DNA of 64,000 bases from Nitrospirota bacterium (GCA_963754875.1 CAVWHO010000016.1:128001-192000); one strand, 5' to 3'. Positions 29,409 to 53,358 are shown, counted from the stretch's first letter. The notes: generated by a model from the letters alone, not told the origin. Numbers and translations are program-made.

Positions 29409-29412
29409 ATCG

Positions 29413-30194: not shown

Positions 30195-30210
30195 TGTATC
30201 CTATGATACA
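30195..30210 (-). promoter_or_regulatory. TGTATC-N4-GATACA box upstream of the yeeE/yedE-methyltransferase operon
   Basis: tgtatcctatgataca; minus-strand -10 TATGAT at 30173-30168 (22-nt spacer). Confidence 0.75.
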
Positions 30211-32644: not shown

Positions 32645-32920
32645 TTATTTTGTCCATTGTGAGATCGGATGCTCATTCTTGTCTCTAAAATTCCCCGATG
32701 CTATCATGACAAGATCAAGAAACCACCACAAACCGAAACCACCCATGCTAAACAACATGATCAGAGCAGTGCCTGTTTTCCCCGAGTAAAATCGATGCCC
32801 CCCGGCCCATCCAAAAAAGAAGCACAACAGCAATGCGACCAAACGACTCTTGCTTGATGCGGCAGCCTCCTCTTTCGTCTCGGAAATTTTTGCAGCTTCT
32901 ACTGTTGCGTCCTCCATCAT
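32645..32920 (-). CDS. TM2-domain membrane protein (copy 1)
   Basis: KSRLVALLLCFFFGWAGGHRFYSGKTGT...GGFGLWWFLD. Confidence 0.92.
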   Translation of the reverse strand: MMEDATVEAAKISETKEEAAASSKSRLVALLLCFFFGWAGGHRFYSGKTGTALIMLFSMGGFGLWWFLDLVMIASGNFRDKNEHPISQWTK

Positions 32921-33018
32921 AACACATCCTTTCCTCCCGGTTAAACGGGAATTGATGTTTGCTCCTATGAGCATTGATTTTCTTTGCTCGTAACTTACAC
33001 GCTAAATAATTAGTTGTC

Positions 33019-33034
33019 TGTATCATAAGATACA
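33019..33034 (-). promoter_or_regulatory. TGTATC-N4-GATACA box upstream of TM2 copy 1
   Basis: tgtatcataagataca; -10 TAAGTT at 32997-32992 (22-nt spacer). Confidence 0.75.
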
Positions 33035-33295
33035 TATAATAAATTGCATTTATGTGATAAAGTGCTTACAAGGTTTAATCGATGAGAAGAAGATGGGCCG
33101 CTCGCGCCATATTGGGATACCTCAGGTAGTGCGTTTTTGGGAAAGCGGGCACATGAATTGTAGTGCGAAATAAATGAATTACTGTGAATTTTATCCTCAT
33201 ATTCAATATGTTTCGCTACCACGAAGAATGCTGTAAGTTGTGGACAATAAAATCGTGATCACATTAACAAAAAGCGTCTGAAGGAAGGGGTATGG

Positions 33296-34282
33296 ATGAT
33301 GAAACAGAAAGTAACGTTCCTGTTTGTTGTTTTGTTTTTGCTACTTGCGACGTCAAGTTTTGCGAATGATTATGGTGTATATGTAAAGGTTATCGAGGGA
33401 GCACCTGGAAGCTATGCAGATGTAAGCTCGAAAATCGAAACAGCCTTAAAAAGTTCCGGGTGGAATATTCTTGCAATGTATGACACCGGTGTACCTGATT
33501 ATTGTCCCTATAATTCCAGGGTAATAATTTTTACTTCTCCGTCCTATGCAGAATCCATAATTGACCATGGAATACAAGCTGTCTTCGCGATTCCGCTCAA
33601 AGTCGGAATCTACGAGGATAAAGCAGGAGTAAATGTGGTTCTGTTAAACCCTGTATCCATAAATAGAACCATCATCAACAAAAAGAAATTTGAAGTACAA
33701 TCGCTTGCGACGCTCAATTCTATCAGTGAGATCGTATCAAAAGCGGTACCATCAGCCATCATTGTAAATAAGCAACTGGGGGAAATCCGGAAAAGCGGCA
33801 GCGTAGGCGGGATAGGCGGAGGTGACTTCGCAGATAAAATAGTAACTTTGTTTACTTCCCGCGACGATTCAGATACCAACTTCAAAAAGATAGCAAAAAA
33901 AGTTAAGCTTGGCATCCTGCATAATCAGACGGGCTGGAAGCTGATTTACACGCTGGATCTTTCGAGTAATGGTGCAGTGATCTACGGAGTTACTGAAGAA
34001 AGAATGGAAGGCTCTGCATTCGCTATAGCGCGTGCGCAAGGTTCAAAGTTGTATAAACAGGTCGTATTGCATCATAATACGGCCTTTCCAATAGAGGTGG
34101 TTGTTTACAAAGAAGAAGGCAAGGTCAAGGTCGTCACGCTGGATGAAATGTACAGAATGGAACTTTATTTTCAGGATGTCGGTACCTGGCCGTTCATCAT
34201 GTATATAAGAAAGCCAAACCAGATCCAGGAGGACATTGTTGAAATGGCGATCGACGGCCTTATGCAGGGAAACGAGAACTAA
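33296..34282 (+). CDS. Secreted protein, possibly tandem DUF302-like domains
   Basis: Signal peptide; two repeats of ...W.I/L...PL/IxVxI/VYxxxxxVxV. Confidence 0.6.
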   Translation: MMKQKVTFLFVVLFLLLATSSFANDYGVYVKVIEGAPGSYADVSSKIETALKSSGWNILAMYDTGVPDYCPYNSRVIIFTSPSYAESIIDHGIQAVFAIPLKVGIYEDKAGVNVVLLNPVSINRTIINKKKFEVQSLATLNSISEIVSKAVPSAIIVNKQLGEIRKSGSVGGIGGGDFADKIVTLFTSRDDSDTNFKKIAKKVKLGILHNQTGWKLIYTLDLSSNGAVIYGVTEERMEGSAFAIARAQGSKLYKQVVLHHNTAFPIEVVVYKEEGKVKVVTLDEMYRMELYFQDVGTWPFIMYIRKPNQIQEDIVEMAIDGLMQGNEN

Positions 34283-34348
34283 TGCTCTGAGCTTGAGGTT
34301 CCTGACGTCTTACCTTAATGGCAAACAGGCTGTAAGTTGATAAATCAT

Positions 34349-34792
34349 ATGAAAGCGACCGACGAAATCATTTTGGTAGCGCCGTGTGGAGCGCATTGCG
34401 GAGATTGTTGGGCATATAAATTAAAAGACGATCCTTCTTCGTGTGAAAATCTCATTGCCATGAACACCATGAACATATATTGGAGCGGCGCACCCTGCCC
34501 GGGATGTCGGCCTAGCGGAGGGAATTGCCAGTTCATCAATGGTGTATGCGAAACCTATACTTGTATTGAAAAACGAGGGTTGGTTTTTTGCTTTGAGTGT
34601 GTTGAATTCCCCTGCGATAAACTGAACCCGGCGGCAGAGATGGCAGATATCCTCCCGCATAATATTAAAATATTCAACTTGTGCTGCATCAAACAACATG
34701 GTGTAGCAAAATGGCTGCGTAAGGCTGCTGAAATTAATGCCAAATATTTTCACGGAAAAATGAGGATTGGGCGAGGACCGCAGCTTGACTAG
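34349..34792 (+). CDS. DUF3795 Cys-rich protein
   Basis: APCGAHCGDC, CPGCR, C...CFECVEFPC. Confidence 0.85.
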   Translation: MKATDEIILVAPCGAHCGDCWAYKLKDDPSSCENLIAMNTMNIYWSGAPCPGCRPSGGNCQFINGVCETYTCIEKRGLVFCFECVEFPCDKLNPAAEMADILPHNIKIFNLCCIKQHGVAKWLRKAAEINAKYFHGKMRIGRGPQLD

Positions 34793-35123
34793 TTGACCCG
34801 TCGGCGGATTATTATGTCGTTGCAAATAGAATTATTTCGATTCGTAATAATATCAATATTTGCATGCATTACCGGGTGGCAATTTCCATAGGGATGAAAA
34901 CTCTTTAATTCAGTCTTTAAAACAAATAGCCCTGAAAATCCGGATCTTCATCGATAGTTGCTTAAGGGAACCAACGGCACAGGGGAAGAGTCGCCCCACA
35001 TTTAACCAAGAAACGGACTTATGAAGGGAAAATGCATTCATAATGGATGTCAAGTGTATGAGCAGAATGCCAAATGCGTTGCTGGGGCACAATGTGCAGG
35101 GGGGAAGTGCAGGCAATCAATAA

Positions 35124-35750
35124 TTATTTTTGCGCTGGTTCTTTTTCCGGCGTCAACACGATGTTGATTCTTCGATTCTTTGCCCTTCCTGCCTCAGTAT
35201 CGTTTGATGCGATTGGTCTATATGACGAGTAGCCTGTTGCGGCGAGGAGTTTGGGATCGATACCTTTCATCTGCAGATATCGAGCGACTGTTGTCGCGCG
35301 TGACGTTGAAAGCTCCCAGTTCGATGCGAACTTTGCCTTGATCCGTTTGCTTAATTGAACATTGTCTGTGTAGCCTTCGATGCGGATTTGCTTGCCAGTT
35401 GTTTTTTTCAAGATCACCGCGACACGGTCAAGGACCTTTTTCCCCTCCTTCTTTATATCCGCGCTGCCGGACTCAAACATGATCTGCTCAACAAGGTTGA
35501 CCGATAGCTGGTCCTTGAGCTGCGTGATGGTGATCTCGCCTTTTTTAATCTCCTGGCTCATCTCTCCCATGAGATTGTCATAGGTATTCTTTATCTCTTT
35601 GAGGGATCGCTCTTTCCCCTCGATTGTGGCATCTTTTTCCTCAACCAAGGTGGTGACTTGCTTTTTAAGAGAATCAATCTCCTTGTTCTTTCCATGGATG
35701 GTCGCAAAAACGATGATAAGCACCACAGTTGCCAAGATTAATCGCCACAC
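35124..35750 (-). CDS. OmpA/MotB-family peptidoglycan-binding protein with TM anchor and coiled coil
   Basis: FESGSA, IEGYTDN, NWELSTSRA and GRAKNRRI motifs; GTG start after GAGGAGG. Confidence 0.9.
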   Translation of the reverse strand: MWRLILATVVLIIVFATIHGKNKEIDSLKKQVTTLVEEKDATIEGKERSLKEIKNTYDNLMGEMSQEIKKGEITITQLKDQLSVNLVEQIMFESGSADIKKEGKKVLDRVAVILKKTTGKQIRIEGYTDNVQLSKRIKAKFASNWELSTSRATTVARYLQMKGIDPKLLAATGYSSYRPIASNDTEAGRAKNRRINIVLTPEKEPAQK

Positions 35751-35832
35751 TCTGCGAGTCCTCCTCAAAAGACCGATCTACGAATGGTAATTATTTTTAT
35801 ACGGCCCGTCTTATCCGTCAGATACAAAAATA

Positions 35833-35860
35833 GGGTCGATAGCGCAATGTCTATCCACCC
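35833..35860 (-). terminator. Terminator-like hairpin after TM2 copy 2
   Basis: gggtcgatag/ctatccaccc, paralogous to the hairpin at 37794. Confidence 0.6.
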
Positions 35861-35880
35861 CAGTGCTTCACCGATGGGTA

Positions 35881-36141
35881 TTATGCCAGTTTCCAATTTG
35901 TGAGAGGAAGTTCATCGCGGTCCTTGTATTTCCCCGTGGTGACCATAATGAGATCGATGAACCACCACATGCCGAAGCCCCCCATCGTAAACAGCATCAT
36001 GAGGCCGGTGCCGATCTTGCCCGTATAATAACGATGCGCTCCAGCCCAGCCGAAAAGGAAACACAACAGTGCTGCTATCCCACGGCTTTTATCCGATACT
36101 TTAAAATCCTTTTTTACATCCTGTGTCATTTCTTCCGACAT
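35881..36141 (-). CDS. TM2-domain membrane protein (copy 2)
   Basis: KSRGIAALLCFLFGWAGAHRYYTGK...GGFGMWWFID; ends WKLA. Confidence 0.92.
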   Translation of the reverse strand: MSEEMTQDVKKDFKVSDKSRGIAALLCFLFGWAGAHRYYTGKIGTGLMMLFTMGGFGMWWFIDLIMVTTGKYKDRDELPLTNWKLA

Positions 36142-36248
36142 TATTTGATCCTCCGTAATACGCACTGGCAAGTGCCTAGTTTATAGTATTCTACGGCTAT
36201 CGATAGTGCAACAGTCCGCCCTCTTAGCATCGATATCTTCTGTTCATT

Positions 36249-36480
36249 CTACTCCTCGGCAAGGATAGTGCACTTTGCATAGATCCCTAAGATGCTGAGG
36301 ACCTCCTTTTCGACTTTGAGTTTTTTTAATTGCGCTTTTTTCATTGCTGTTCCAATGCTGCCATCGCAGACTGACATGAAACCAAAAAATGATGCTACAC
36401 GCGCAGTTCCTTTCTTTGCCCCTCTCCTTGCTGTACCCGTTGTTACCGCCGTCTTGGAAACAAACGTATGAAGAATGCCC
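36249..36480 (-). pseudogene. 5'-truncated, decayed TRL-like lipoprotein
   Basis: SKTAVTTG...GAKKGTA...FFGF...DGSIGTAMK...LSILGIY..CTILAEE aligns to the 38196 and 44021 copies; no signal peptide, first conserved Cys lost. Confidence 0.8.
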
Positions 36481-36954
36481 TTAAATGAACAGATTGATCT
36501 GCGAATCTGCTGCTGCATCCAACCATGAGGCTGCACCGCCGAACTCGACACCTTTAATGATGTCCGCCTGTTTATATCCCATCACGTCCATCGTCATCTG
36601 GCACGCAATGAGTTTCACACCAGAATCTTTGGCAAGCTCAAGAAGCTGGCCGATCGTGGCTACGCCATGTTTTTTAAACATAGACTTCATCATGGCCGTG
36701 GCCACGGCCTCCATGCCGGGCATCGATGAAATCCACGTCGGTATCGGTACCGGCATCGGCATGGCCGGATTGCCTAGGGGAGAAACCATCAGCTTTTCGG
36801 TGTTGCCCTTCTTAATAATCTCAAGACCGTAAAAAGTGAAGAAGATCGTTGTATCCACATCCATAGTCGAAGCTGTAGTTGCGAGAATCAGCGGAGGATA
36901 TGCCATATCCAGTGATCCCTTGGACGCGATAATTGTCATTTTTTTATTTGCCAT
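36481..36954 (-). CDS. DsrE/DsrF/DsrH-like (DsrE2-type) sulfurtransferase
   Basis: KGSLDMAYPPLILA, FFTFYGL, LIACQMTMD, INLFI. Confidence 0.9.
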   Translation of the reverse strand: MANKKMTIIASKGSLDMAYPPLILATTASTMDVDTTIFFTFYGLEIIKKGNTEKLMVSPLGNPAMPMPVPIPTWISSMPGMEAVATAMMKSMFKKHGVATIGQLLELAKDSGVKLIACQMTMDVMGYKQADIIKGVEFGGAASWLDAAADSQINLFI

Positions 36955-36955
36955 A

Positions 36956-37204
36956 TTATTCTCCTGCCATCTTTTTGATATAGAAGGTGAACGTCCCGGA
37001 GCCCTCTTACATCTTTACGATTGCATTGCCCGGTCGATTTGCCCAGGATGCCATATCCTTCTTTGATCCCGCATCCGTCGTCTCTACTCTCAGAACCTGA
37101 CATTGAGAAAGCGTTTCCATTTCTTTTTTTGTTTTCAAAATCGGGAGCGGACAACTCATGCCCTTTGCATCGAGTAGCTGGTCAAACTTTGTATCTGCTG
37201 GCAT
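36956..37204 (-). pseudogene. tusA: TusA/SirA sulfur carrier with in-frame TAA
   Basis: LDAKGMSCPLP motif; reading continues past the stop at 37007-37009 as KM*EGSGTFTFYIKK. Confidence 0.8.
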
Positions 37205-37385
37205 ATTGCTATCTCCTATCAATAGCCATGTATTAAGATGGAAACCACTATTTTTTTAAAACACTCAGTAGTAAGACACTTACTTTCGATAAAATGGGAA
37301 GCACGATGCCTGGAAAATTAGAGGATACAAGATCATTGAACTATTTTTTCAACTTGTCGCCTTCTCAGCTATCCTCCGTGCCTCC

Positions 37386-37658
37386 TCAAAAACGCCCGGT
37401 GATGGCCGGAGCGATTGAAATGGTGTCGCCGTTTTTGAGTGTGGTGTCTTCCTTGTTTAAAAATAGAATGCCTTCATTATTTAAGTAAATATTAATGAAA
37501 TAACGTACTTTCCCGTTATCGGATAGCCGCTCCTTCATCCTCGGGTAACTCTCCTCAAGCGTCTTAAGACCAGCAATGTTCTTCACCATGCATTCGACCT
37601 CTACGTTCCCGTTAGTCAACTTCTGTAGCGGTGTTGGTATTCTCACTTTTATAGACAG
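37386..37658 (-). pseudogene. MoaD/ThiS/CysO ubiquitin-like sulfur carrier, degenerate
   Basis: IKVRIPTPL...FINIYLN...GDTISIAPAI; CTG at the start position; C-terminal Gly-Gly replaced by TGRF. Confidence 0.75.
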
Positions 37659-37793
37659 GTTGCTATCCTCCGAATAGTGGGATATCGCACCTCGCAGCTG
37701 TCATACAAATATTTGCTGTCCGATCTCTTGATCTCCGCGCATGTATTTCTCTTTCGTGGTCTCAAACGGTTGGTTGCACGATAAATAAAAAGA

Positions 37794-37819
37794 GGTGGAT
37801 AGACTTACGCCTATCCACC
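37794..37819 (-). terminator. Rho-independent terminator after TM2 copy 3
   Basis: ggtggatag-N8-ctatccacc, followed by a T-rich tract on the minus strand. Confidence 0.7.
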
Positions 37820-37840
37820 CGGTAGGCCAGTGCTCCCGTT

Positions 37841-38113
37841 TTAAGCCAGCTTCCATTCAGCGATCACAGAATTGTTATTGTCCTTAAATTTCCCTATCAG
37901 GAGCATGACGAAATCATAGAACCACACCAATCCAAATCCACCCATCGTGAACAGCATGATGAGACCCATTTTCGTCTGCTTGGCATAGAAACGGTGTGCA
38001 CCTGCCCACCCAAAAAACATACACAATGCCAAAGCAATTGAACGACTCTTGCTGGAAACCTGCACTTCTTTTGCTGACTTTTCTTCCGCAACTTCCTTAT
38101 TTTCTTCTGACAT
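37841..38113 (-). CDS. TM2-domain membrane protein (copy 3)
   Basis: KSRSIALALCMFFGWAGAHRFYA...GGFGLVWFYD; ends WKLA. Confidence 0.92.
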   Translation of the reverse strand: MSEENKEVAEEKSAKEVQVSSKSRSIALALCMFFGWAGAHRFYAKQTKMGLIMLFTMGGFGLVWFYDFVMLLIGKFKDNNNSVIAEWKLA

Positions 38114-38195
38114 TTCACGTCTCCTTATCGTTTGGTTTGATCTTTATACATAAAACTACTCTTAATCTGGTACCTAAGCCCTTATGTTTAGGCAA

Positions 38196-38516
38196 CTACT
38201 CTCCTGCAACAATGGTGCACTGTTTTGTGTAGATGCCGAAGATGCTGAGATTGTCTTTGTCCACACTGAATATTTCCTTAATTCCGCCGTTCTTCATTGC
38301 GGCTCCAATGCTGCCATCTCCGATTGACGTAAATCCAAAAAGGCCTTTTATACATGCGGTTCCCTTCTTTGCCCCTGTCTTTGCCGGGCCCGTTGATACT
38401 GCTGTCTTCGACGCCGTATATCCCCAGCCAAAAGGTCCGTCCGCGACAAAACCGCACCCAGTGATTCCCACTGCCAATAACGCCAGAACTGCTACCGCAA
38501 CTAGTGTCCTCTTCAT
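38196..38516 (-). CDS. TRL-like family lipoprotein
   Basis: Lipobox ITGC; KKGTAC...FG...GDGSI.AAMKNGGI..I.SVD...IFGIY.KQCTIV.GE. Confidence 0.9.
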   Translation of the reverse strand: MKRTLVAVAVLALLAVGITGCGFVADGPFGWGYTASKTAVSTGPAKTGAKKGTACIKGLFGFTSIGDGSIGAAMKNGGIKEIFSVDKDNLSIFGIYTKQCTIVAGE

Positions 38517-38610
38517 TCCTGCTACCTCCCTTTGATTGAAATAATTGGATTATTGAAAATCCTTTGTACAAGCTTGAAACCGATGCTACACCAGATGCCG
38601 TACTGTTGTC

Positions 38611-38626
38611 TGTGCCTTTTGATACA
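38611..38626 (-). promoter_or_regulatory. Variant box TGTGCC-N4-GATACA upstream of the TRL-TM2 unit
   Basis: tgtgccttttgataca with the same GTC flank; -10 TAGCAT at 38588-38583 (23-nt spacer). Confidence 0.6.
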
Positions 38627-38652
38627 TGCGGCACTGAATTCTTAGTAGAACC

Positions 38653-38892
38653 TTACATCCAGTTAGAAATTTCGTTGTTGTCTTTGTCTAATAATTGGCC
38701 TGAGGCGGTTAAGATGCAATCAATGAACCACCAGAGGCCAAAACCGCCTAAGGTAAACAGCATGATGAGGCCAGTGCCCGTCTTTCGCGCATAAAAACGA
38801 TGCGCGCCCGCCCATCCCAGAAAAAAACACAACAGTGTGGCGATCATGCGGCTCCTCTGAGATGCTTGAACGATATTCTTTTTCTCGGCCAT
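38653..38892 (-). CDS. TM2-domain membrane protein (copy 4)
   Basis: RSRMIATLLCFFLGWAGAHRFYARKTGT...GGFGLWWFID; GAGGAGG RBS. Confidence 0.92.
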   Translation of the reverse strand: MAEKKNIVQASQRSRMIATLLCFFLGWAGAHRFYARKTGTGLIMLFTLGGFGLWWFIDCILTASGQLLDKDNNEISNWM

Positions 38893-38998
38893 GTTGCCTC
38901 CTCTATTTATACAAATTGTTTCTGAACAACGTTGATTGATTGAATACCAATAATCTCGATCATCGCTGATAGAAATATCACTTCTATGATGAATAGTC

Positions 38999-39014
38999 GG
39001 TATCCGACGATACA
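38999..39014 (-). promoter_or_regulatory. Box GGTATC-N4-GATACA upstream of TM2 copy 4
   Basis: gtc-ggtatccgacgataca; GTA-N8-TAC intact, but the -10 match is only partial (TATTTC). Confidence 0.6.
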
Positions 39015-39316
39015 TGTTTCTAATATTTTTTGGCTTATTTTGGACGGTACTTATGATCTGTCCGCGGTCTGTTAGACGGCTCTCGGAAAAACCGGGCTGA
39101 GCCATAAGAAACATCATCCGGAGAGATTAAAGGCGAGGCTGCTCATGACATCGAGCAGAGCGGTCGTAGTCGATCAGTTCCATGATTGTCGGTCTTTCAC
39201 CACACAGTGGGCATTCATGATTGCTGACGCCTTTATGGTACGATGCCCCTGTTCAACGCGTACCAAAATTAGGTTTCCTTTAAGTACAAAATTAAACTGC
39301 TTAGTCAGAATTAGTT

Positions 39317-40480
39317 TTATTTGCAGCTGTCGCTCAGAAAGCAGAATCTTCCAATACTGTGCTGCCAAAGCGGAGCCACGTTATTCTCCCACCAGTTTGC
39401 CCCGTTTTTTTTCTGTGAAGCCTCAACAAGCATGGTTATTTCGGTCTGATCGGTTAAAGCTTCTATTTTAAACTTATCCCTTACTTTATTGCTGGAATGG
39501 CCTAACGTTATCTTTGAGCCGACTGATACGACTTCCCCGTCGTCATATATAATTGTACAATTTGGCTCAGAGGAAGATACGGTATAGTTAACATATTCAC
39601 CCTCGGGAAAAGAAATCCAGTGAGGTGTTTGCTCGTTGGCCTGAAGCTGAAAAGAGTACTCCCCGGGCTGATAGATAATTTCGCCGGGCATATCGGATTC
39701 CACTGCAGCTTCACCGAGGTATTTTATTGCCAGAGCCCTGTTCTCGTTGGTTGCATTTTCATGACCGACTTTTCTGCCCAATTTTTTGGCTTCCTCAAGA
39801 TGATATCTGCCGAGCGTCTGCTTATTTTCTTCGTACTCTCTGGAATATTTTGCGTTGTTGAACCGGACGGCCTTTTCGAGCATGTCAACCCGTTCTTCGC
39901 TGGTTGATGCCGCTTGGCTCAGTGAATAATAATAGCCAGATATGGCCGGGTTAAGCTCAAGATCGATTTTGCCGGCCATATACAACAACAGGTCGGAAGA
40001 TGCCTTTGTATTACTGGCTTGCTTTCCTCTCCGGAGCAGGCTTGCGGCAACCTTTTTAGACAGGATGGGATCATAAAGAAAGGCTTCCCGGTAAAGCTCC
40101 TCCGCTTTTTGCAAATCGCCGGCATTGAGTTTCGCATAGGCTCGTTGTGCGTAAAGGATTGCAATCCTTTTCCCGTACTTAGTCTTAACTACACCAGCGC
40201 TGAACCGATCCTTGGCGCATCGCAAGTTGCCCTGGTTCAAGCAAAATTTCCCTTTTAGGAAGTGAAGTTTTGCATCTGTCGGATTTTGGATTATCAGTCG
40301 GTCAAAGCAGTCGCTTGCCTTGTCCGGCAGATTGAATTTCAGATAGTTTTCCGCATCAACCGAGGACTTACATTTGAGCGCGCTCGCGGCAGATACGGTC
40401 GCTGAGGATAGCAATGCCGCAAGAAGGAGTGTGATTATTTTTTTCAACAGAGACCTCATATTATACTGAAAATGACCCAT
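39317..40480 (-). CDS. Secreted TPR-repeat protein
   Basis: Signal peptide; TPR-like helices (NPTDAKLHFLKG, AEELYREAFLYDP). Confidence 0.75.
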   Translation of the reverse strand: MGHFQYNMRSLLKKIITLLLAALLSSATVSAASALKCKSSVDAENYLKFNLPDKASDCFDRLIIQNPTDAKLHFLKGKFCLNQGNLRCAKDRFSAGVVKTKYGKRIAILYAQRAYAKLNAGDLQKAEELYREAFLYDPILSKKVAASLLRRGKQASNTKASSDLLLYMAGKIDLELNPAISGYYYSLSQAASTSEERVDMLEKAVRFNNAKYSREYEENKQTLGRYHLEEAKKLGRKVGHENATNENRALAIKYLGEAAVESDMPGEIIYQPGEYSFQLQANEQTPHWISFPEGEYVNYTVSSSEPNCTIIYDDGEVVSVGSKITLGHSSNKVRDKFKIEALTDQTEITMLVEASQKKNGANWWENNVAPLWQHSIGRFCFLSDSCK

Positions 40481-40557
40481 GTTTACCCCTGAATTACGTT
40501 ATACGGCTGAGTTGAGATCCGCAGATTTTCGTTTGAAAAAGCTTTAGATTGGATCAG

Positions 40558-41232
40558 TTATTCATATCCAGCAGAATATTTTATTTGATCCAGCAATTTT
40601 ACTTCGTCGATTAGTTTGATCTGCTCGCTCGTCGTTTGGATTAAGCCATCTTTTCTCAATTTAGAAAAACACCTTGACACGGACACCCTTGTTGAACCTG
40701 TTAAATCCGCTATCTCCTGATGGGTCAACGGTATTTTGACAATTTTATTGTCTGCATATTTCAGCAACAGGGCTATTACTCTTGCGGGAATTTCCATGAA
40801 TGCCATGTCTTGAAGCAGATTTTCCATCGCTAGCCGTCTGTCCCCGATGAGTTTGATCAGTGTAAGGGCAAAATCGGGTCTTTTCTGCATAAAACCTTCG
40901 AAATGGACTTTGTCTATCTCGCAGCAGACAGAGTCCATCATGGCTTCTGCAAAGGATCTCCGCTCTTTTTCACCGGCGAGGCACAATTCTCCGAAAAATT
41001 GACCTGGTTCAATCAGGTCAATGGTAAGTTTCCTTCCATCCGTATTGACTCTTGATATTTTGATTATTCCTTGTTGCAGAATATATATAGCGTCTGAGGG
41101 ATCGCCCTGCATGAATACGGCATCTCCCTTAGCAATCTTCAAATGCCTGGAGAATTGCGACAGGCTTTCAATTTCTTGCTTCGACAAGTCAGAAAAGAGC
41201 GTGGCGCCATGAAGACATTGTTCTTTGAACAT
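40558..41232 (-). CDS. Crp/Fnr-family regulator (paralogue 1)
   Basis: FMQGD, G.IKI, FFGELCL; HTH LTHQEIADLTGSTRVSVSR. Confidence 0.95.
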   Translation of the reverse strand: MFKEQCLHGATLFSDLSKQEIESLSQFSRHLKIAKGDAVFMQGDPSDAIYILQQGIIKISRVNTDGRKLTIDLIEPGQFFGELCLAGEKERRSFAEAMMDSVCCEIDKVHFEGFMQKRPDFALTLIKLIGDRRLAMENLLQDMAFMEIPARVIALLLKYADNKIVKIPLTHQEIADLTGSTRVSVSRCFSKLRKDGLIQTTSEQIKLIDEVKLLDQIKYSAGYE

Positions 41233-41292
41233 AGCACATCTCGATCTTTTTGCATTCAGCCGCGTTGAAAGCCGATACCCCTTGAATATTCT

Positions 41293-41691
41293 TTATTCAT
41301 TTGGCCTAATGTCTCCGCCATCAAGCATCATTACAAGTCTGTAAGGAATAAAAGGTTTTTGGAGGAAGTCATTCGCACCAGCGCACAAGAATTCCATGCC
41401 TTTATCCTCTTCGCTCAGGACTATTATGATGGCTGCGGGGCATAGCTCGCCGAGCTGTTCTATGAGTTCAAAACCATTTATATCGGGCATATTATGATCT
41501 AGGATAATGTAATCGACATCATCAGTTGCTAATAATAACGGCGCATCTTTACTAAGTTCAGGGAATGATATATCAATGCCGTGTGCGTCCAAAGCATAAT
41601 TCAGAATGTCTTTGAGATCTCTATCGTACGAGAACATCATTACTCTCTGCTTGTATCGTGACGATCCTTTTTTTCGCAATGTAAAGCTCAA
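41293..41691 (-). CDS. Single-domain response regulator
   Basis: IILDHNMPDINGFELI...GANDFLQKPF; the N-terminal acidic pocket is divergent. Confidence 0.85.
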   Translation of the reverse strand: MSFTLRKKGSSRYKQRVMMFSYDRDLKDILNYALDAHGIDISFPELSKDAPLLLATDDVDYIILDHNMPDINGFELIEQLGELCPAAIIIVLSEEDKGMEFLCAGANDFLQKPFIPYRLVMMLDGGDIRPNE

Positions 41692-41796
41692 TTGTATATC
41701 CTACATTGCATTATAAGCATCCTTGGGGGTTGTATCGATTGGCTTTAGCGCGGGTTAATTTACTTTTTTCGGTTAGTTTATTAATACATGTCCATC

Positions 41797-41839
41797 GAAT
41801 CAGCAAGGGAATCGCTTTCGCAGAATCCCTTGCTGATTC
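41797..41839 (-). terminator. Strong hairpin closing the TRL-propeller gene run
   Basis: gaatcagcaaggga...tcccttgctgattc, 14-bp stem. Confidence 0.7.
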
Positions 41840-41848
41840 GTACCTGGA

Positions 41849-42139
41849 CTAACAACCGACTGCGGCTTTGCGTTTTTCAGCTGCAGGTTTTACCTGCTTG
41901 AGCGTATCGTTTTCCACCGAGACTTCAACCTTTTCTCCAGCTTTTATATTGCTCATGTTGGCGTGCTTATCAACCTTGAGTGTGACATCTTCTGTGCTAC
42001 CCTCAGGACAGAAAACTACAGTTCCGGCTTTTGTGTCAATACTCTTGACAGTGCCGACCTTTGATTCTGCTGCGAAAACCAGCGACGAAATAAGAGCTAC
42101 CGAAGCAATTACGGCCAAGACCCATACGAACTTCTTCAT
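41849..42139 (-). CDS. Small secreted OB-fold-like protein ending in Gly-Cys
   Basis: Signal peptide; GTVKSID...IKAGEKVEV; basic tail KRKAAVGC-COOH. Confidence 0.8.
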   Translation of the reverse strand: MKKFVWVLAVIASVALISSLVFAAESKVGTVKSIDTKAGTVVFCPEGSTEDVTLKVDKHANMSNIKAGEKVEVSVENDTLKQVKPAAEKRKAAVGC

Positions 42140-42417
42140 CCGATTGAACCTCCTCATGTGAATTTGACTGCAAAATATTATAGTTATTTTTTGATCTTTG
42201 ATTTTTTACGAGGCGCTACGTAGAAACGATGTTTTGAACGAACGCTTTCTGAACCAGTTAACATTGCAATGCCTTGGATCTCCCAAAGTGCCGTTGCATA
42301 AGCGGTCGACTTTATGCACCATATCGTAATGCACCATCGCGCTTGCCTAATATCGTCTTACCGCATCACCTCCAAGTGTGCGGTTATATTGGTCGTTTCC
42401 TCTATCCGCCACGGGTT

Positions 42418-42729
42418 TTACGGTGAATTGGAGCCCGAGGATATCCTCTGCACGATGACAAAATCGTGTGTCTTCTCAATTTTGACTTTTTCGCCTCTCT
42501 CAAGCTTAGTTCCTGGCGCAGCTTTGCACTCAATCGCAGACGCCGTCTCGCAGCTGACCGTAATTATCTGCCCATCCTGATTTTCAGCTGCGATAAAGAG
42601 GGCGGCAATTTTCCCGTTCTTCATCGCGACATCATAAATCCTGCCAACAACGACATCTGCCCCCATGGCAGGAAACGTATAGGTAGCAACAAATGCTGCG
42701 ACGATAGCCACGACAGTTTTATTTTTCAT
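42418..42729 (-). CDS. Small secreted hypothetical protein
   Basis: Signal peptide, two Cys, GEKVKI beta-rich pattern. Confidence 0.65.
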   Translation of the reverse strand: MKNKTVVAIVAAFVATYTFPAMGADVVVGRIYDVAMKNGKIAALFIAAENQDGQIITVSCETASAIECKAAPGTKLERGEKVKIEKTHDFVIVQRISSGSNSP

Positions 42730-42843
42730 CGTAGTCGCTCTTTCCTTATTCACGCTTTCGGCTTAAGAAATAAAGAAACGGCCGGAGGAGCAGGGGAGAG
42801 AGTTGGACCTCCGGCCGGAGGAACATATTTCAGACTCGATACA

Positions 42844-43932
42844 TTAATGCCAGTTGATTTCTATTCCGCAGAGTTGAGGAGATCCGCCGTCTATGCCTAC
42901 GGTAATGCCATTTGCCTTATGACAGGATCCGCATGCTGATACCTTGCCTACGATATTGTAGTTGCTCCTGTCCATGATATGCATGAGGCTATCATCTTTG
43001 CCATTCGTTCTTGCGGAGAGAAAGGCATACTTGCCGTCTTTGGTAAAGGCGAAGTCATGAATCACCACATCGTCTGGTAGATTGATGCGCTTTACAATCT
43101 CATCCTTGGCAGTATCAATGATGATCACCTGAGGTTTCATTGTGCGAGAAGAAAGCCCCGGTCCGAATTCATTCGCAGCTGCCACCCAAAGCTCTTTTCC
43201 GTCAGGAGACATCCTCATCTGGTGGATAAACGTCATCCCGTCAGCACTTTTGATTTCCTTGATCTTCTTCTTTGTTTTCCAGTCGTATACGTAGACGACA
43301 GCCGTGGGCATGTCAGATATGTATGCCTTGGCATTATTCTTGGTCCACGCTATGCCACAGACCGCTTTGCCTACAGGCATTTTATCAACTGTTTTCAGGC
43401 TCTTCGGGTTCCATACGTATACATGCCCATCTGCCATATCTTCAAGATAGATATTGCCATCTGCCCCGAGGATGGTACCACAGAACTTATTGCCGACTTT
43501 GAAGGGCCCTTCTTTTTTTCCACTCTTTAAATTTATTTTATAGACATTGCCGGCAAGCGTGCTGGCAACTAATACGTCTTTGCTGATTAAGGCCTGGCCG
43601 TGAGAGCCGCCGGCCTTTTTTACTTGTTCGAAGTCCATACCCGCAATTTTGCCCTCCATTTCGGAGCCTGCTTCTGTAAGAACAATCCTGTCTTTTTCAG
43701 GATCGGTTGGCGCCTTCATCGTATTCATATCGATGATCGCCAAGTGGCCGCCGTGTCCCGCAATGTAGGCAGTTGCGTTGAATGTCGGTATCTTCGGCGC
43801 CAGTACTTCTTTTGCGTCAATGACAGTTTCGGTGGCCGCTTCGATTGGCGTACGGAATGTGAGCCCAATTAAAAGAACAAGAGCAACAAATGCAAAAAGA
43901 CCAATTGCGACACTCTTTTTCACAAAACTCAT
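42844..43932 (-). CDS. Secreted YVTN-type beta-propeller with CxxCH heme-c motif
   Basis: Blade repeats (..SPDGKELWV, FTKDGKYAF); CGSCH near the C-terminus; N-terminal signal/anchor. Confidence 0.85.
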   Translation of the reverse strand: MSFVKKSVAIGLFAFVALVLLIGLTFRTPIEAATETVIDAKEVLAPKIPTFNATAYIAGHGGHLAIIDMNTMKAPTDPEKDRIVLTEAGSEMEGKIAGMDFEQVKKAGGSHGQALISKDVLVASTLAGNVYKINLKSGKKEGPFKVGNKFCGTILGADGNIYLEDMADGHVYVWNPKSLKTVDKMPVGKAVCGIAWTKNNAKAYISDMPTAVVYVYDWKTKKKIKEIKSADGMTFIHQMRMSPDGKELWVAAANEFGPGLSSRTMKPQVIIIDTAKDEIVKRINLPDDVVIHDFAFTKDGKYAFLSARTNGKDDSLMHIMDRSNYNIVGKVSACGSCHKANGITVGIDGGSPQLCGIEINWH

Positions 43933-44020
43933 AACAACCTCCTCATTGCGCATAATTTAGAAAATACATTCCTATTTGCAAATTGAATTGTATGACCTTA
44001 CAACTGCTCTCGTGCTGATA

Positions 44021-44341
44021 TTATTCGCCGGCAACTAGAGTGCACTGCTTGGTGAAAATGCCCAGGATGCTCAGGTTATCCCGGTTGACACTGAAGATTT
44101 GTTTTATTCCTCCGTTCTTCATTGCAGCCTCAATGCTGGCATCACCGATTGATATAAAACCAAAAAAGGCCGTTACACAAGCGTCTCCCTTTTTTGCCCC
44201 TGTCTTAGCCGGACCTGTTGATACTGCTGTTTTGGTAGCGGTATATCCCCAGCCAAAAGGCCCGTCAGCGACAAAACCGCACCCCGTTGTACCGAACGCA
44301 ACAGCTGCGACCACTGCCGCCAATACTGCGAACTTTTTCAT
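44021..44341 (-). CDS. TRL-like family lipoprotein (paralogue of 38196-38516)
   Basis: Lipobox TTGC; the segment GCGFVADGPFGWGYTA is identical in both copies. Confidence 0.9.
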   Translation of the reverse strand: MKKFAVLAAVVAAVAFGTTGCGFVADGPFGWGYTATKTAVSTGPAKTGAKKGDACVTAFFGFISIGDASIEAAMKNGGIKQIFSVNRDNLSILGIFTKQCTLVAGE

Positions 44342-44439: not shown

Positions 44440-44455
44440 TGTATCTTTTGATACA
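44440..44455 (-). promoter_or_regulatory. TGTATC-N4-GATACA box upstream of the TRL-propeller operon
   Basis: tgtatcttttgataca; -10 TATAGT at 44417-44412 (23-nt spacer). Confidence 0.75.
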
Positions 44456-45154: not shown

Positions 45155-45835
45155 TTAGGAATAACTTGCAGATAGCCGCACGTGATCAGCCACGTGATCA
45201 GTCATATTATCGATCACTCTAATACGCTCACCAGCCGTTTCAATTAATCCGTCTTTTCTCAATTTGGCAATGCACCTTGACACTGATACCCGAGTCGATC
45301 CTGTTAAGTCCGCTATCTCCTGGTGGGTCAGGGGAATTTTGACAATACTCTTTACCGCATATTTTAACAGTAGTGCAACGACTCTCGCTGCGACGTCCAT
45401 GAACGCCATGTCTTCAAGAAGGTTTTCCATGGCAAGCCGCCTGTCTCCGATATGTTTGATCAACTTAAGGGCAAAATCAGGCTTTTTATGCATAAATTCC
45501 TTGAGATCATTTTTCCCAAGTTCGCAGAAAGAAGAATCCACCATAGCTTCTGCAAATGAACGGCGTTCTTTTTCGCCAGCCAGGCATAATTCTCCGAAAA
45601 ATTGTCCGGGCTCAATCAGGTCAATGGTGAGCTTTCTTCCGTCCGTATTGACCCGGGAAATTTTGATTATTCCCTCATGTAGAATGAAAATGGAGGACGC
45701 AGGATCACCTTGCATGAATACAGCATCACCTTTGGCAATCCTTGATCGTCGGGATGTCTTTGCCAAGACATCAATTTCATGCCCTGATACATCGGAAAAA
45801 AGTGCGGATCTCGAGTAACATTGATGTTGATCCAT
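45155..45835 (-). CDS. Crp/Fnr-family regulator (paralogue 2)
   Basis: Shares long identical stretches with 40558-41232, including the HTH. Confidence 0.95.
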   Translation of the reverse strand: MDQHQCYSRSALFSDVSGHEIDVLAKTSRRSRIAKGDAVFMQGDPASSIFILHEGIIKISRVNTDGRKLTIDLIEPGQFFGELCLAGEKERRSFAEAMVDSSFCELGKNDLKEFMHKKPDFALKLIKHIGDRRLAMENLLEDMAFMDVAARVVALLLKYAVKSIVKIPLTHQEIADLTGSTRVSVSRCIAKLRKDGLIETAGERIRVIDNMTDHVADHVRLSASYS

Positions 45836-46372: not shown

Positions 46373-46453
46373 TCTAACGCATTAAACGACGCTGGGTAAA
46401 TTCTACAAATTCGTATATCCTGCTCCTTAAAATTCGCTTCTAAGGAGAGCTGG

Positions 46454-47995
46454 ATGACGAGAGAAAGAATACCCGTGCGAACAATTAAAGAAGTTTTACG
46501 CCTCAAATGGTCCTGCGGCCTAGACCGCCGCGCTATATCCAAAAGCTGTGGAATAGCCAGAAGCACCGTTGACGAGTATACGAAACGAGCCAGACAGGCC
46601 GGGCTATCATGGCCCCTGCCGGCAGACCTGGACGATACCGCCCTCGAGCATCTTCTCTACCCGCCGGTCATTGTCTCCACATCTCCACGTCCGCTCCCTG
46701 TATGGGAGGATGTTCACCGCGAGCTTGCGCGTAAAAGTGTTACCCTGATGCTCCTGTGGGACGAGTACAAAGCGCAATATCCTGAAGGATATCAGTACGC
46801 ACATTTTTGTGACCTCTATCGCGCCTATGCAAAAAAGCTCGATATCTCCATGCGACAGGTTCATCTTGCAGGAGAAAAGCTGTTTGTTGATTACTGTGGC
46901 CAAACAGTCTCGGTAATCGACAAATCCACCGGAGAGGTACACAACTGTCAGATCTTCGTCGCCGTCCTAGGCGCCAGCAACTTTACATATGCCGAAGCAA
47001 CGTTTACGCAGGGTCTGCCAGACTGGATCGGTTCCCATGTCCGGACCCTTAAGTTCATCGACGGTGTGCCCGAGATCCTGATCCCTGATAATCTTCTCTC
47101 CGGCATCACCAAGGTCTGTCGCTATGAGCCAGGCGTCAATCGCACCTATCAAGAGCTTGCAGTTCATTACGGTGCTGCGGTCATTCCTGCCCGCGTCAGG
47201 AAGCCTAAAGACAAAGCGAAAGTTGAAGCCGGAGTCCTTCTGGTGCAGCGTTGGATCCTGGCAGCCCTCAGGAACCGTACCTTCTTCAGCCTCGCAGAAC
47301 TCAATGCCGCTATCCGGGAACTGCTGGATAGACTCAATAACCGGCCCTTCAAGAAGCTCTCCGGCAGCCGTATGAGCCGTTTTCTGGAGATCGATAAGCC
47401 TGCATTACAACCGCTGCCTGCTGTGGCCTTCGAGTACGCAGAATGGAAGATAAAAAAACGTTCCGGCATCGATTACCACGTCGAAGTCAATGACCACTAT
47501 TACAGCGTACCCTACCAACTCCGCAATGAATACCTGGACGTACGGCTAACGGAATCGATTGTAGAAGTCTTCTTTCACAACAAACGCATCGCCTCACATA
47601 TCCGGTCCTATGCCAAGGGAAGACATACGACACTTGCCGAGCACATGCCGAAGTCCCATCGGGACTATGCTGACTGGACCCCAGAGCGCCTGATACGCTG
47701 GGCATCGGAAACCGGCAAATCAACGGCAGAGCTGGTTACGGCCATTCTCGCAAAGAAGCTTCACCCACAACAAGGCTTTCGTTCCTGTATGGGGATCATC
47801 ACTCTTTCCAAGAAGTTTGGCAAAGAACGCGTCGAGGCTGCCTGCAAGCGAGCACTCGCCATCGGGGGCATCAGTTTCGGAAGCGTCAAGTCCATCCTTG
47901 AAACAAATTTAGACAAAAAACCGTTACCAGAGCCAAAAGCCGCATCACAGGCGATCACTCACAGCAACATCCGTGGCAGCGAATACTATAACTAA
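46454..47995 (+). CDS. istA: IS21 transposase
   Basis: GEKLFVDYCG, PDNL, KPKDKAKVE (DDE), HSNIRG. Confidence 0.97.
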   Translation: MTRERIPVRTIKEVLRLKWSCGLDRRAISKSCGIARSTVDEYTKRARQAGLSWPLPADLDDTALEHLLYPPVIVSTSPRPLPVWEDVHRELARKSVTLMLLWDEYKAQYPEGYQYAHFCDLYRAYAKKLDISMRQVHLAGEKLFVDYCGQTVSVIDKSTGEVHNCQIFVAVLGASNFTYAEATFTQGLPDWIGSHVRTLKFIDGVPEILIPDNLLSGITKVCRYEPGVNRTYQELAVHYGAAVIPARVRKPKDKAKVEAGVLLVQRWILAALRNRTFFSLAELNAAIRELLDRLNNRPFKKLSGSRMSRFLEIDKPALQPLPAVAFEYAEWKIKKRSGIDYHVEVNDHYYSVPYQLRNEYLDVRLTESIVEVFFHNKRIASHIRSYAKGRHTTLAEHMPKSHRDYADWTPERLIRWASETGKSTAELVTAILAKKLHPQQGFRSCMGIITLSKKFGKERVEAACKRALAIGGISFGSVKSILETNLDKKPLPEPKAASQAITHSNIRGSEYYN

Positions 47996-48013
47996 CTGCA
48001 AAAGGAGACTATT

Positions 48014-51252: not shown

Positions 51253-51268
51253 TGTATCATGTGATACA
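51253..51268 (-). promoter_or_regulatory. TGTATC-N4-GATACA box at the island right end
   Basis: tgtatcatgtgataca; -10 TATAGT at 51230-51225 (23-nt spacer). Confidence 0.7.
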
Positions 51269-51706: not shown

Positions 51707-51784
51707 TGGCGTCCCCAAGGGGATTCGAACCCCTGTTATCGCCGTGAAAGGGCGGTGTCCTGGGCCGGGCTAGACGATGGGGAC
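51707..51784 (-). tRNA. tRNA-Glu(TTC)
   Basis: GTCCCCA...anticodon loop CTTTCAC, GGTTCGAATCC, encoded CCA. Confidence 0.97.
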
Positions 51785-51857
51785 AATGATTCAGTTTTTA
51801 GTTTTAAGTTCTTAGTCACTCAGCACTAAAAACTCACAACTCATGACTGCGCATAAC

Positions 51858-52001: not shown

Positions 52002-53358
<1,357 letters not shown>

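Follow-up and report, generated by a model that had tools for sequence, protein, structure and literature searches.

According to PMC11582611, PmpA corresponds to the C-terminal half and PmpB to the N-terminal half of YeeE, and the two have been suggested to assemble into a heterodimer that serves as a transporter. The same paper describes import of thiosulfate or another sulfur species by members of the YeeE family, assisted by external carrier proteins and by TusA-like acceptors in the cell, connects a YedE-like protein with selenium, and calls the import step for sulfur and selenium poorly understood. The YTD cluster of sulfur-disproportionating bacteria consists of YedE, TusA, DsrE2, Chp2, and Chp1, according to the accessible portion of PMC9751629. 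Genes for proteins of the YeeE/YedE, TusA, and DsrE2 families are also found in a 64,000-nucleotide (nt) stretch of a Nitrospirota genome (GCA_963754875.1 CAVWHO010000016.1:128001-192000; the whole stretch is referred to below as the window), around a 12-kb cluster of genes encoding small TM2 membrane proteins (Pfam PF05154) and TRL lipoproteins (PF13146). TM2 and TRL are widespread families, and we know of no molecular function for either of them; the animal TM2D proteins have been studied for Notch signaling and Alzheimer's risk.

The odds appear evenly balanced that the locus is an acquired, activator-controlled island for the import and relay of sulfur or selenium, in which TRL and TM2 serve as envelope accessories of a PmpAB-type transporter. 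The cargo would most likely be sulfur, for example in the form of thiosulfate or (poly)sulfide, and possibly selenium. In the proposed arrangement, the inner membrane would contain a two-gene, half-size channel of the YeeE/YedE family, made up of a PmpA-like and a PmpB-like protein, while a TRL lipoprotein of one particular subfamily, perhaps together with a small exported protein ending in Cys, would act on the periplasmic side. The ∼80-residue TM2 hairpins, with their invariant HRFY loop, second-helix Asp, and C-terminal Trp, would act as small membrane partners, and a cytoplasmic TusA-DsrE2-ThiS-like relay would pass the chalcogen on. Two paralogous Crp/Fnr regulators are predicted to activate at least five island promoters via a TGTATC-N4-GATACA(GACA) box centered near −41.5. 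One TRL-TM2-terminator module seems to have been duplicated long ago, and its TRL seems to have been cut short afterwards, at the point where it now borders the ThiS-TusA-DsrE2 genes. We infer that TRL and TM2 physically work with the transporter, that it carries such a substrate, that the regulators bind the box, and that a signal is sensed. Directly observed are the family memberships, the recurrence of the gene order, the position and conservation of the operator, the purifying selection, and the foreign base composition.

Four TM2 open reading frames (ORFs), all on the minus strand, score 66.6 to 71.5 bits against PF05154 (gathering cutoff, 27.9 bits) over model positions 2 to 51 of 51, in agreement, four for four, with the initial annotation, which had listed four minus-strand TM2 paralogues within 12 kb. 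The three TRL-like copies listed there all exceed the PF13146 cutoff of 25 bits (80.5, 80.9, and 42.5 bits). The clustering is real, because the entire 4.3-Mb host assembly contains five TM2 and five TRL matches, of which four and three, respectively, lie inside this 12-kb stretch. The fifth TM2 protein, encoded outside the cluster, has a zinc-ribbon N terminus, and the remaining two TRLs form a tandem pair of a different type. The two intact TRLs of the cluster have a hydrophobic N terminus followed by an (I/T)TGC lipobox (read by eye), with the lipobox Cys being invariant in all 40 aligned members of their subfamily. The mature protein begins with C-GFVADGPFGW, which is the defining feature of the TRL subfamily linked to TM2.

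Among 301 genomes sampled from the phylum, TRL is encoded in 98 and TM2 in 27, and both are found in all eight genomes of a single family, referred to here as f18 and probably the magnetotactic family of Nitrospirota. In six genomes of the 301, all of them from f18, the TRL gene is followed directly, as in the window, by a codirectional TM2 gene, with a gap of 27 to 53 nt. In every one of these six, the next two genes encode halves of PF04143 (YeeE/YedE; cutoff, 27 bits), the C-terminal half preceding the N-terminal one, and their products are 49 to 60% identical to those of the window (55 to 60% for the PmpA-like protein and 49 to 54% for the PmpB-like protein). The genes that flank the pair in four f18 genomes code for ClpB, DnaJ, TIM, SecG, TilS, VWA, restriction-modification, and other proteins, none of which is common to all four loci.

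These unrelated housekeeping neighborhoods, with a two-gene YeeE/YedE-family transporter as the sole conserved partner, tell against the envelope structure or compartment coat suggested in the initial annotation. The companion suggestion of an immunity-like array fares no better, as none of the six TM2 and TRL proteins matches PADLOC at an E value of ≤0.01; the OmpA-like protein encoded nearby is alone in giving matches there, to generic ZorB/MotB entries. A coat, for example one linked to magnetosomes, or an immunity array would agree with the multiple paralogues, the presence of TM2 domains in phage protein families, and the origin of the named closest homologues of the window TRL, which come from magnetotactic Nitrospirota (51 to 61% identity). 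However, the f18 flanks are of the housekeeping type with no flank gene shared by four loci (magnetosome genes were not searched by name), no toxin-like partner is seen, and selection on the paralogues is purifying and not diversifying, so that such a function appears very improbable.

In metagenomic data, the best 80 of 238 stretches encoding a TRL relative were analyzed, of which 17 contain a TRL at least 50% identical to that of the window and 63 a more distant one. Three of the 17 are cut too near the contig end, and in nine of the remaining 14 (L021 to L025, L027, L029, L030, and L033), a TM2 gene lies directly downstream of the TRL gene. The fetched flanks of the 63 more distant loci contain neither TM2 (custom hidden Markov model, E ≤ 1e-3; 0 of 63) nor a PmpA/B relative (BLASTP, E ≤ 1e-5; 0 of 63), neither lies within ∼4 kb of TRL at another 14 loci from the phylum, and none of 40 near relatives, 14 of them genomes of the same genus, has adjacent TRL and TM2 genes. 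Because other TRL types show no such neighbors (0 of 63 and 0 of 14), the link is specific to the C-GFVADGPFGW subfamily: the pairing that had been proposed holds for this subfamily and fails for the TRL family at large. The more distant TRL of the f18 genome G245 stands alone. A complete lack of TRL-TM2 co-occurrence in other genomes, which had been named as an outcome that would speak against a functional pair, is not what is observed, as the pair is present in six of the eight f18 genomes and in nine of the 14 metagenomic loci. A pattern scan for close TRL relatives, with one genome per species, produced a single weak partial match (L011; 60% identity over 24 residues).

The transporter of the window is encoded by two adjacent genes that carry the C- and N-terminal halves of PF04143, each with conserved Cys residues, as in the half-size PmpA/PmpB type. 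The f18 PmpA-like proteins (L012 to L017) contain an additional N-terminal stretch of ∼75 residues, hydrophobic in the sequences printed, that is missing from the window protein, in which the similarity starts at KKKRWWP. Truncation or a frameshift at the N terminus of the window gene was considered and is unsupported; the gene simply lacks the f18 extension.

A candidate periplasmic component is the small exported protein encoded at 41849..42157, which is 33% identical (pairwise E = 2e-5) to a protein encoded at L108:2292-2561, directly before the TRL, PmpA, and PmpB genes of the f18 genome G261. A protein ending in AVAGC (L034:660-932) occupies the same place before TRL-PmpA-PmpB in L034. 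Small signal peptide-containing proteins of ∼90 to 100 residues that end in A(V/A)(A/V)GC could be periplasmic carriers with a C-terminal Cys, a feature reminiscent of SoxY-type carriers. The window protein encoded at 42418-42753 was also considered as a relative of the L034 protein, and the two gave no alignment. A stronger claim, that the C-GFVADGPFGW TRL and the ∼80-residue TM2 are unrecognised periplasm-side and membrane subunits of PmpAB chalcogen transporters that receive the substrate from the small exported protein ending in Cys, is tentative and would be distinctly less probable than a general accessory role.

The genes of the island are further connected by a shared operator. It consists of a 16-bp palindrome, TGTATC-N4-GATACA, followed by GACA on the gene strand, and belongs to a 22-nt repeat family with the core GTATC-N4-GATAC. 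Seven exact copies of this core exist in the 4.3-Mb genome, five of them within 21 kb of this locus. Allowing one mismatch, the window has eight sites, compared to 1.15 ± 1.0 in shuffled sequences; none of 100 shuffles of the window reached eight. The first genes behind four of the island boxes are TM2 and TRL genes. The box centers lie 101 to 115 nt before the starts of TM2 type 1, TM2 type 4, TRL copy 2, and TRL copy 3 in the window and about 92 to 120 nt across all loci; for the PmpA-like gene, the distance is 250 nt in the window and 103.5 nt at the orthologous L024 site. At most sites, a −10-like hexamer (e.g., TATGAT, TATATA, TAGCAT, TATAAT, or TATCAT) follows 21 to 23 nt past the box, the two TM2 type 4 sites being ambiguous. 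This geometry would be that of a class II activator site centered near −41.5, the hexamer spacing implying a position of −41 to −43.

The box is conserved in other genomes. Exact copies precede the TRL genes in L025, L027, L029, L030, and L033 and the TM2 type 1 and PmpA-like genes on L024. Boxes with one or two mismatches precede TM2 type 4 and TRL on L021 to L024, the latter being orthologous to the degenerate box at 38611..38626. None of the three TM2-lacking loci that were checked (L026, L031, and L034) has a box. In five f18 genomes, 10 exact 16-mers were found, compared to none for the reversed pattern used as a control, and four of the 10 (in G125, G149, G253, and G261) lie directly before a solitary TM2 gene. 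A small coiled-coil protein with a single transmembrane helix is encoded behind the box-controlled solitary TM2 genes (L019, L104, L105, and L106) of G149, G253, and G261; the 88-residue ORF at this place in G125 aligns poorly. These proteins resemble the N-terminal part of the window OmpA-like protein in architecture alone, and homology between them was discarded for lack of any BLASTP alignment. A sixth exact box, TGTATCATAAGATACA, located outside the window at G000:C20:426374 in another stretch of lower GC content, may mark a further regulon member; ∼200 nt downstream of it are genes for a glycine-zipper membrane protein and then an ORF with CxxCH motifs and a NapC/NirT appearance.

The predicted readers of this box are the two Crp/Fnr-family regulators encoded in the island. 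Both exceed the cutoffs for PF00027, PF13545, and PF00325, i.e., for the sensor domain and the Crp-type helix-turn-helix (HTH), and orthologues of regulator 1 (49 to 53% identity) are present in four of five f18 genomes, the three that were read sharing the recognition helix TRVSVSR. NtcA reads GTA-N8-TAC through Arg186, Val187, Thr190, and Arg191, with the Val discriminating against CRP (available part of PMC11850224), and NtcA-activated promoters have their site at about −41.5 (available part of PMC3898017). The NtcA-type helix RVSVSR of the island regulators fits the island box TGTA-N8-TACA. By sequence, these regulators are not NtcA, and the resemblance appears confined to the DNA-reading residues.

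Alignment of 24 TM2 sequences reveals two hydrophobic stretches joined by an invariant or nearly invariant G-x-H-R-(F/Y)-Y loop, with its His-Arg, as well as a conserved Asp in the second helix, several invariant Gly residues, and a C-terminal Trp. Both termini are predicted to lie outside. The start of TM2 paralogue 1 is most likely 32920 and that of paralogue 2 is likely the ATG at 36141. The 154-residue ORF 38653-39117 was overcalled, the actual 79-residue type 4 gene starting from the ATG at 38892 behind the ribosome-binding site GAGGAGG; its orthologues begin with MAE(K/R)KN, at the same start. The polar and charged positions of the hairpin, along with its Gly residues, the four conserved and diverged paralogues, and the many stand-alone family members, including phage protein families of unknown function, could also belong to homo-oligomeric TM2 pores or carriers (e.g., for anions or a proton leak), with the paralogues differing in specificity and TRL being an unrelated lipoprotein that happens to share the operon. 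Given that the TRL-TM2 order and spacing are kept across several genera, which argues for coupling, this option seems unlikely.

The structure of TRL offers few leads. The AF2 model of copy 2 (pLDDT, 77.9) is a β-sheet of about six strands with one helix. Its comparison with the Protein Data Bank (PDB) in Foldseek returned nothing at E ≤ 0.001, with FKBP-like rows on top at an E value of 0.55; with VIA-align, the highest Z score among 48,161 chains was 3.8, with FKBP, DUF74/YbjQ, RcsF, and dodecin rows tied. The TRL profile found no meaningful match among PDB sequences (best E value, 0.026, to a viral coat protein), and a Protein atlas query with TRL returned TRL clusters only. Complex prediction for mature TRL with TM2, both supplied as alignments, returned no answer (score, 0.00, without controls), which is evidence neither way.

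The TRL-TM2-hairpin module occurs twice, as repeat families 1950 to 1960 nt apart with 62 to 71% DNA identity. The repeats and the WKLA C termini of both TM2 proteins bear out what the initial annotation had described, and the related hairpins seen there turn out to be intrinsic (Rho-independent) terminators, with a stem and a T-run. The stem of the first, GGGTGGATAG/CTATCCACCC, recurs after the orthologous TM2 genes of L022, L023, and L024; the second has one internal stem mismatch and an interrupted T-run. Between the two modules lie the genes for the ThiS-like, TusA, and DsrE2 proteins. The ThiS-like protein ends in TGRF, not in the usual Gly-Gly, and as a sulfur carrier would need processing or another mode of action. 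The DsrE2-like protein scores 199.7 bits over its full length against the NCBIfam DsrE2 model (NF047629), just under the cutoff of 210. The TRL-like copy next to it had been called decayed. It is indeed defective, more precisely a 5′-truncated remnant: the homology sets in immediately past the stop codon of DsrE2 (36481) and in a different reading frame from it, and the start codon, signal peptide, and lipobox are missing. It also has two one-residue deletions and a C55-to-R replacement that removes one of the two conserved Cys residues, and its ratio of nonsynonymous to synonymous substitution rates (dN/dS) relative to the intact copies is 0.29.

The MotB/OmpA-like gene follows TM2 type 2 both in the window and on L024 (75% identity), the one syntenic contig on which this adjacency is retained; NCBIfam places the protein near MotD/MotB, below cutoffs. 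Its co-regulation with the module, assumed previously, is doubtful, given the terminator between it and the TM2 gene and the lack of an activator box before it, but could possibly occur through read-through.

Each TM2 type has its own history. The four are 69 to 88% identical to their orthologues on syntenic metagenomic contigs, compared to 52 to 58% among paralogues, and the C-terminal signatures AEWKLA, WKL(A/S), SQWTK, and S(N/S)WM are kept per type across contigs. Synonymous sites between TM2 paralogues are saturated, and dN/dS is 0.07 to 0.25 between orthologues and 0.12 to 0.26 between paralogues where computable. Because of these type-specific orthologues and signatures, saturated synonymous sites, and low dN/dS values, the TM2 copies can be considered old, separately maintained variants. 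Of the two possibilities raised in the initial annotation, high dosage or diversified variants, diversification is therefore upheld and dosage is not; the purely local duplication named there as the alternative is contradicted by the orthologues. That the copies are functionless duplicates of two hitchhiking small genes, as the decayed copy and the nearby insertion sequence (IS) element might indicate, is the least credible explanation of all, given the orthologues of each paralogue on other contigs with dN/dS of 0.07 to 0.26, the recurrence of the pair in six of eight f18 genomes and nine of 14 metagenomic loci, and the conserved operator sites before the copies.

The 8.2-kb contig L024 encodes, at 50 to 80% identity, TRL, TM2 type 3, TM2 type 2, the OmpA-like protein, DUF302 (in the reverse direction), TM2 type 1, p124, hemerythrin, p106, p149, and the PmpA-like protein and is devoid of the ThiS-TusA-DsrE2-remnant block. 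L022 encodes the regulator, TM2 type 4, TRL, TM2 type 3, and a DsrE2 that is 94% identical to that of the window, and L023 encodes TM2 type 4, TRL, TM2 type 3, and the ThiS-like protein. In the window, the GC content falls to 0.40 to 0.46 over 26 to 46 kb, compared to 0.51 to 0.58 for every contig of the genome; the f18 loci (0.36 to 0.46) are similar to the island. The 12-kb stretch looks like the core of a ∼25-kb acquired island (roughly 26 to 52 kb of the window), its foreign origin being indicated by the low GC content, the tRNA genes at the edge, and the internal IS21 element.

Several findings weigh against a joint function of TRL and TM2 with the transporter. None of the TM2 and TRL genes of the window adjoins the PmpA/B-like genes; the nearest one, TM2 type 1, starts ∼3 kb upstream, the transporter has its own box, and the TRL and TM2 units are all separate from the transporter unit. 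TM2 is missing from the operon of G261 (small exported protein, TRL, PmpA, PmpB), from that of L034 (TRL, PmpA, PmpB), and altogether from five of the 14 assessable close-TRL loci (L026, L028, L031, L034, and L057), so it is either dispensable or supplied from elsewhere. The f18 TRL-TM2-PmpAB operon is preceded by a TTGACA/TATATC-type promoter that has no box; regulation and function are therefore not strictly coupled. In f18, the genes next after the small coiled-coil protein behind the solitary TM2 encode S-adenosylmethionine synthetase in G125 and G149 and also S-adenosylhomocysteine hydrolase in G125, with no transporter. The transporter halves score 21.9 to 48.4 bits against the NCBIfam TsuA and YedE equivalogs, whose cutoffs are 200 to 645, which leaves sulfur and selenium as substrates not told apart, and the two regulators reach 75.8 and 85.3 bits against the NtcA model TIGR03697 (cutoff, 244.95). 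Finally, the two Cys residues of mature TRL were considered as the mark of a sulfur-binding subfamily and rejected as such: the pair is not subfamily specific, because TRLs that have no TM2 or transporter neighbors carry it too, and it is probably a structural disulfide, not a sulfur-binding site.

According to the leading competitor, possible though clearly less favored, TM2 and TRL are general envelope-protection proteins, induced by a Crp/Fnr regulator under a toxic condition (e.g., sulfide, selenite/tellurite, or redox stress), that stabilize or modify membranes on their own, with the transporter adjacency reflecting a shared regulon and not a machine. In its favor, the gene that most often comes first after the box is a TM2 gene, even where no transporter is near (four of the 10 exact boxes in the five f18 genomes), every TM2 and TRL gene of the window belongs to a transcription unit apart from the transporter, and further products of the island are hemerythrin, the MotB/OmpA-like anchor, a UbiE/ArsM-type methyltransferase, and a weakly ExtJ-like protein. 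However, in six of the eight f18 genomes TRL, TM2, PmpA, and PmpB form one tight string with its own box-free promoter amid otherwise unrelated flanks, which is the usual signature of the parts of one system, not of a stress regulon. The coordinates of the features that enter into the import-and-relay reading and its competitors are collected in Table 1.

Table 1. Coordinates of the features of the island in the window, with the evidence for each
Feature	Coordinates	Strand	Evidence and remarks
PmpB-like half of YeeE/YedE-family transporter	28659..29408	-	PF04143, 70.1 bits, model 1-148 (N-terminal half); Cys in RVCKYD and GYCPGT
PmpA-like half of YeeE/YedE-family transporter	29413..29952	-	PF04143, 73.9 bits, model 173-310 (C-terminal half); Cys in GGCVSG
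Activator box before PmpA/B-like genes	30195..30210	-	TGTATCATAGGATACA; exact; TATGAT 21 nt after
TM2 paralogue 1 (type 1)	32645..32920	-	91 residues, ends SQWTK; PF05154, 68.8 bits; L024 orthologue 77% identical
Activator box before TM2 paralogue 1	33019..33034	-	TGTATCTTATGATACA then GACA; exact; center 106.5 nt upstream; kept on L024 before orthologous TM2
MotB/OmpA_C-like protein	35124..35768	-	N-terminal transmembrane helix and coiled coil; PF00691, 78.1 bits
Intrinsic terminator after TM2 paralogue 2	35833..35859	-	Stem GGGTGGATAG/CTATCGACCC then TATTTTTG; -16.3 kcal/mol, z -2.7
TM2 paralogue 2 (type 2)	35881..36171	-	Ends WKLA; PF05154, 66.6 bits; L024 orthologue 69% identical, dN/dS 0.25
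TRL remnant, probable pseudogene	36249..36479	-	PF13146, 42.5 bits, model positions 10-72 only
DsrE2-like sulfur carrier	36481..36954	-	PF13686, 182.8 bits; L022 orthologue 94% identical, following TM2
TusA-like sulfurtransferase	37007..37222	-	PF01206, 57.7 bits; CPxP Cys present
ThiS/MoaD/SAMP-like small protein	37386..37646	-	PF02597, 28.4 bits; L023 orthologue 68% identical, following TM2
Intrinsic terminator after TM2 paralogue 3	37793..37820	-	12-bp stem and T-run; -21 kcal/mol, z -4.9
TM2 paralogue 3 (type 3)	37841..38113	-	90 residues, ends WKLA; PF05154, 70.6 bits; orthologues 74-88% identical, dN/dS 0.07-0.12
TRL lipoprotein copy 2	38196..38516	-	106 residues, lipobox ITGC then GFVADGPFGW; PF13146, 80.5 bits; orthologues 79-83% identical, dN/dS 0.10-0.18
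Degenerate activator box before TRL copy 2	38611..38626	-	TGTATCAAAAGGCACA; repeat family D6; center 101.5 nt from ATG
TM2 paralogue 4 (type 4)	38653..38892	-	79 residues, ends SNWM; PF05154, 71.5 bits; orthologues 78-86% identical
Activator box before TM2 paralogue 4	38999..39014	-	TGTATCGTCGGATACC; exact over 14-mer GTATC-N4-GATAC; center 114.5 nt from ATG
Crp/Fnr-family regulator 1	40558..41232	-	cNMP_binding, HTH_Crp_2, and Crp domains; recognition helix TRVSVSR
Small exported protein	41849..42157	-	Ends AAVGC-COOH; candidate periplasmic carrier; ExtJ match 25 bits, below cutoff
TRL lipoprotein copy 3	44021..44341	-	PF13146, 80.9 bits; 76% identical to copy 2, dN/dS 0.12
Activator box before TRL copy 3	44440..44455	-	TGTATCAAAAGATACA; exact; center 106.5 nt from ATG; TATATA 21 nt after
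Crp/Fnr-family regulator 2	45155..45835	-	71% identical to regulator 1, dN/dS 0.08, same helix
IS21-family element (istA/istB) inside island	46454..48754	+	Mu-transpos_C_2, IstB_IS21 (254 bits)
Orphan activator box, island edge	51253..51268	-	Exact; no convincing downstream gene
tRNA-Glu and tRNA-Lys, high-coordinate edge of low-GC region	51707..51933	-	ARAGORN, GC profile

Read along the minus strand, the island starts with Crp/Fnr regulator 2, a CBS protein, a box, TRL copy 3, a β-propeller, two small exported proteins, a receiver domain, Crp/Fnr regulator 1, a tetratricopeptide repeat (TPR) lipoprotein, a box, TM2 type 4, a weak box, TRL copy 2, TM2 type 3, and a terminator. It continues with the ThiS-like protein, TusA, DsrE2, the TRL remnant, TM2 type 2, a terminator, and the MotB/OmpA-like gene, followed by plus-strand genes for DUF3795 and DUF302. 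The final part has a box, TM2 type 1, three unknown proteins and hemerythrin, a box, the PmpA-like and PmpB-like genes, a methyltransferase, and a two-CW protein. The β-propeller (42844-43953, minus strand), encoded directly behind TRL copy 3, has a signal anchor, a C-terminal CGSCH heme c motif, and weak matches of the cytochrome d1/YVTN type. Just upstream of istA, a 23-nt unit is repeated four to five times in tandem (46259-46373); these copies are probably the multiple terminal repeats of the IS21 element. The box at 51253-51268 lies some 700 nt from the next minus-strand gene, which encodes a sigma-54 activator (region 50520-51700); the DNA between them is apparently noncoding and may represent a decayed target. 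Adenylosuccinate synthetase is split into the overlapping ORFs 52693-53322 and 52002-52868 (minus strand) and ComEC into 599-1537 and 1414-2949 (plus strand), each due to a frameshift or an assembly error.

Taken singly, the transporter, sulfur carriers, regulator class, and terminators each belong to a known kind. No description of TRL and TM2 in connection with a YeeE/YedE transporter, or of the regulon, was found in the literature searched: among full texts, no paper joins "TM2 domain-containing protein" with YeeE/YedE terms, none contains "PF13146," and "PF05154" appears only in a paper on the SHOCT domain. The initial annotation had also missed the Crp/Fnr operator common to these genes, their sulfur-relay context, and the foreign origin of the island. 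The conserved operon and the shared operator, with TM2 heading the regulon in several genera, give TRL and TM2 a genetically testable role and add candidate periplasmic parts to sulfur/selenium import. Should TRL and TM2 prove to be transporter subunits, the TM2 domain would gain its first molecular role in any organism, the TRL family would likewise gain its first, and a new NtcA-like regulon outside cyanobacteria would be defined.

Comparison with known systems puts these proteins at various distances from their best-described relatives. TRL weakly matches the model of the Leptospira adhesin Lsa14 (NF047877; 47.6 bits at a cutoff of 120), but, unlike Leptospira, the host is a free-living, environmental organism, and nothing points to adhesion. 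The TM2 proteins share with the eukaryotic TM2D proteins, such as almondex/TM2D3 (as covered by the available part of PMC8714088), the same Pfam domain, the two helices, and the short conserved loop; unlike them, the bacterial proteins are only ∼80 residues long, have no large N-terminal ectodomain, and offer no place for a Notch-type function. Similarly to NtcA and other class II Crp/Fnr activators, as far as these are covered by the available sources, the island has a GTA-N8-TAC-type palindrome, predicted to lie near −41.5 in place of a −35 element, and regulators with an Arg-Val-x-x-(Thr/Ser)-Arg helix. However, the island box is longer and is extended by GACA on one side, the regulators are no orthologues of NtcA, and the host is not a cyanobacterium.

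The likeness to the YTD cluster, which the available part of its description ties to inorganic sulfur metabolism, consists in the presence of YedE-family, TusA, and DsrE2 genes in one locus. Unlike the contiguous YTD genes, the transporter genes of the island (28659-29952) are ∼7 kb away from TusA-DsrE2 (36481-37222), with other genes between, and the transporter is split into two genes; this comparison covers YedE, TusA, and DsrE2. TRL and TM2 are not described as parts of YTD in the available portion of PMC9751629. With the known YeeE/YedE (PmpAB) systems, the window and f18 share the gene for the C-terminal half of PF04143 followed by that for the N-terminal half, each with a conserved Cys, and, as with YeeD/TsuB beside YeeE, the island encodes a TusA-like protein. 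Unlike TsuA and YedE themselves, the window halves score far below the cutoffs of those models, and, unlike the known YeeE/YedE systems, which have neither a lipoprotein nor a TM2 partner, the transporter genes here are preceded by those for a TRL lipoprotein and TM2.

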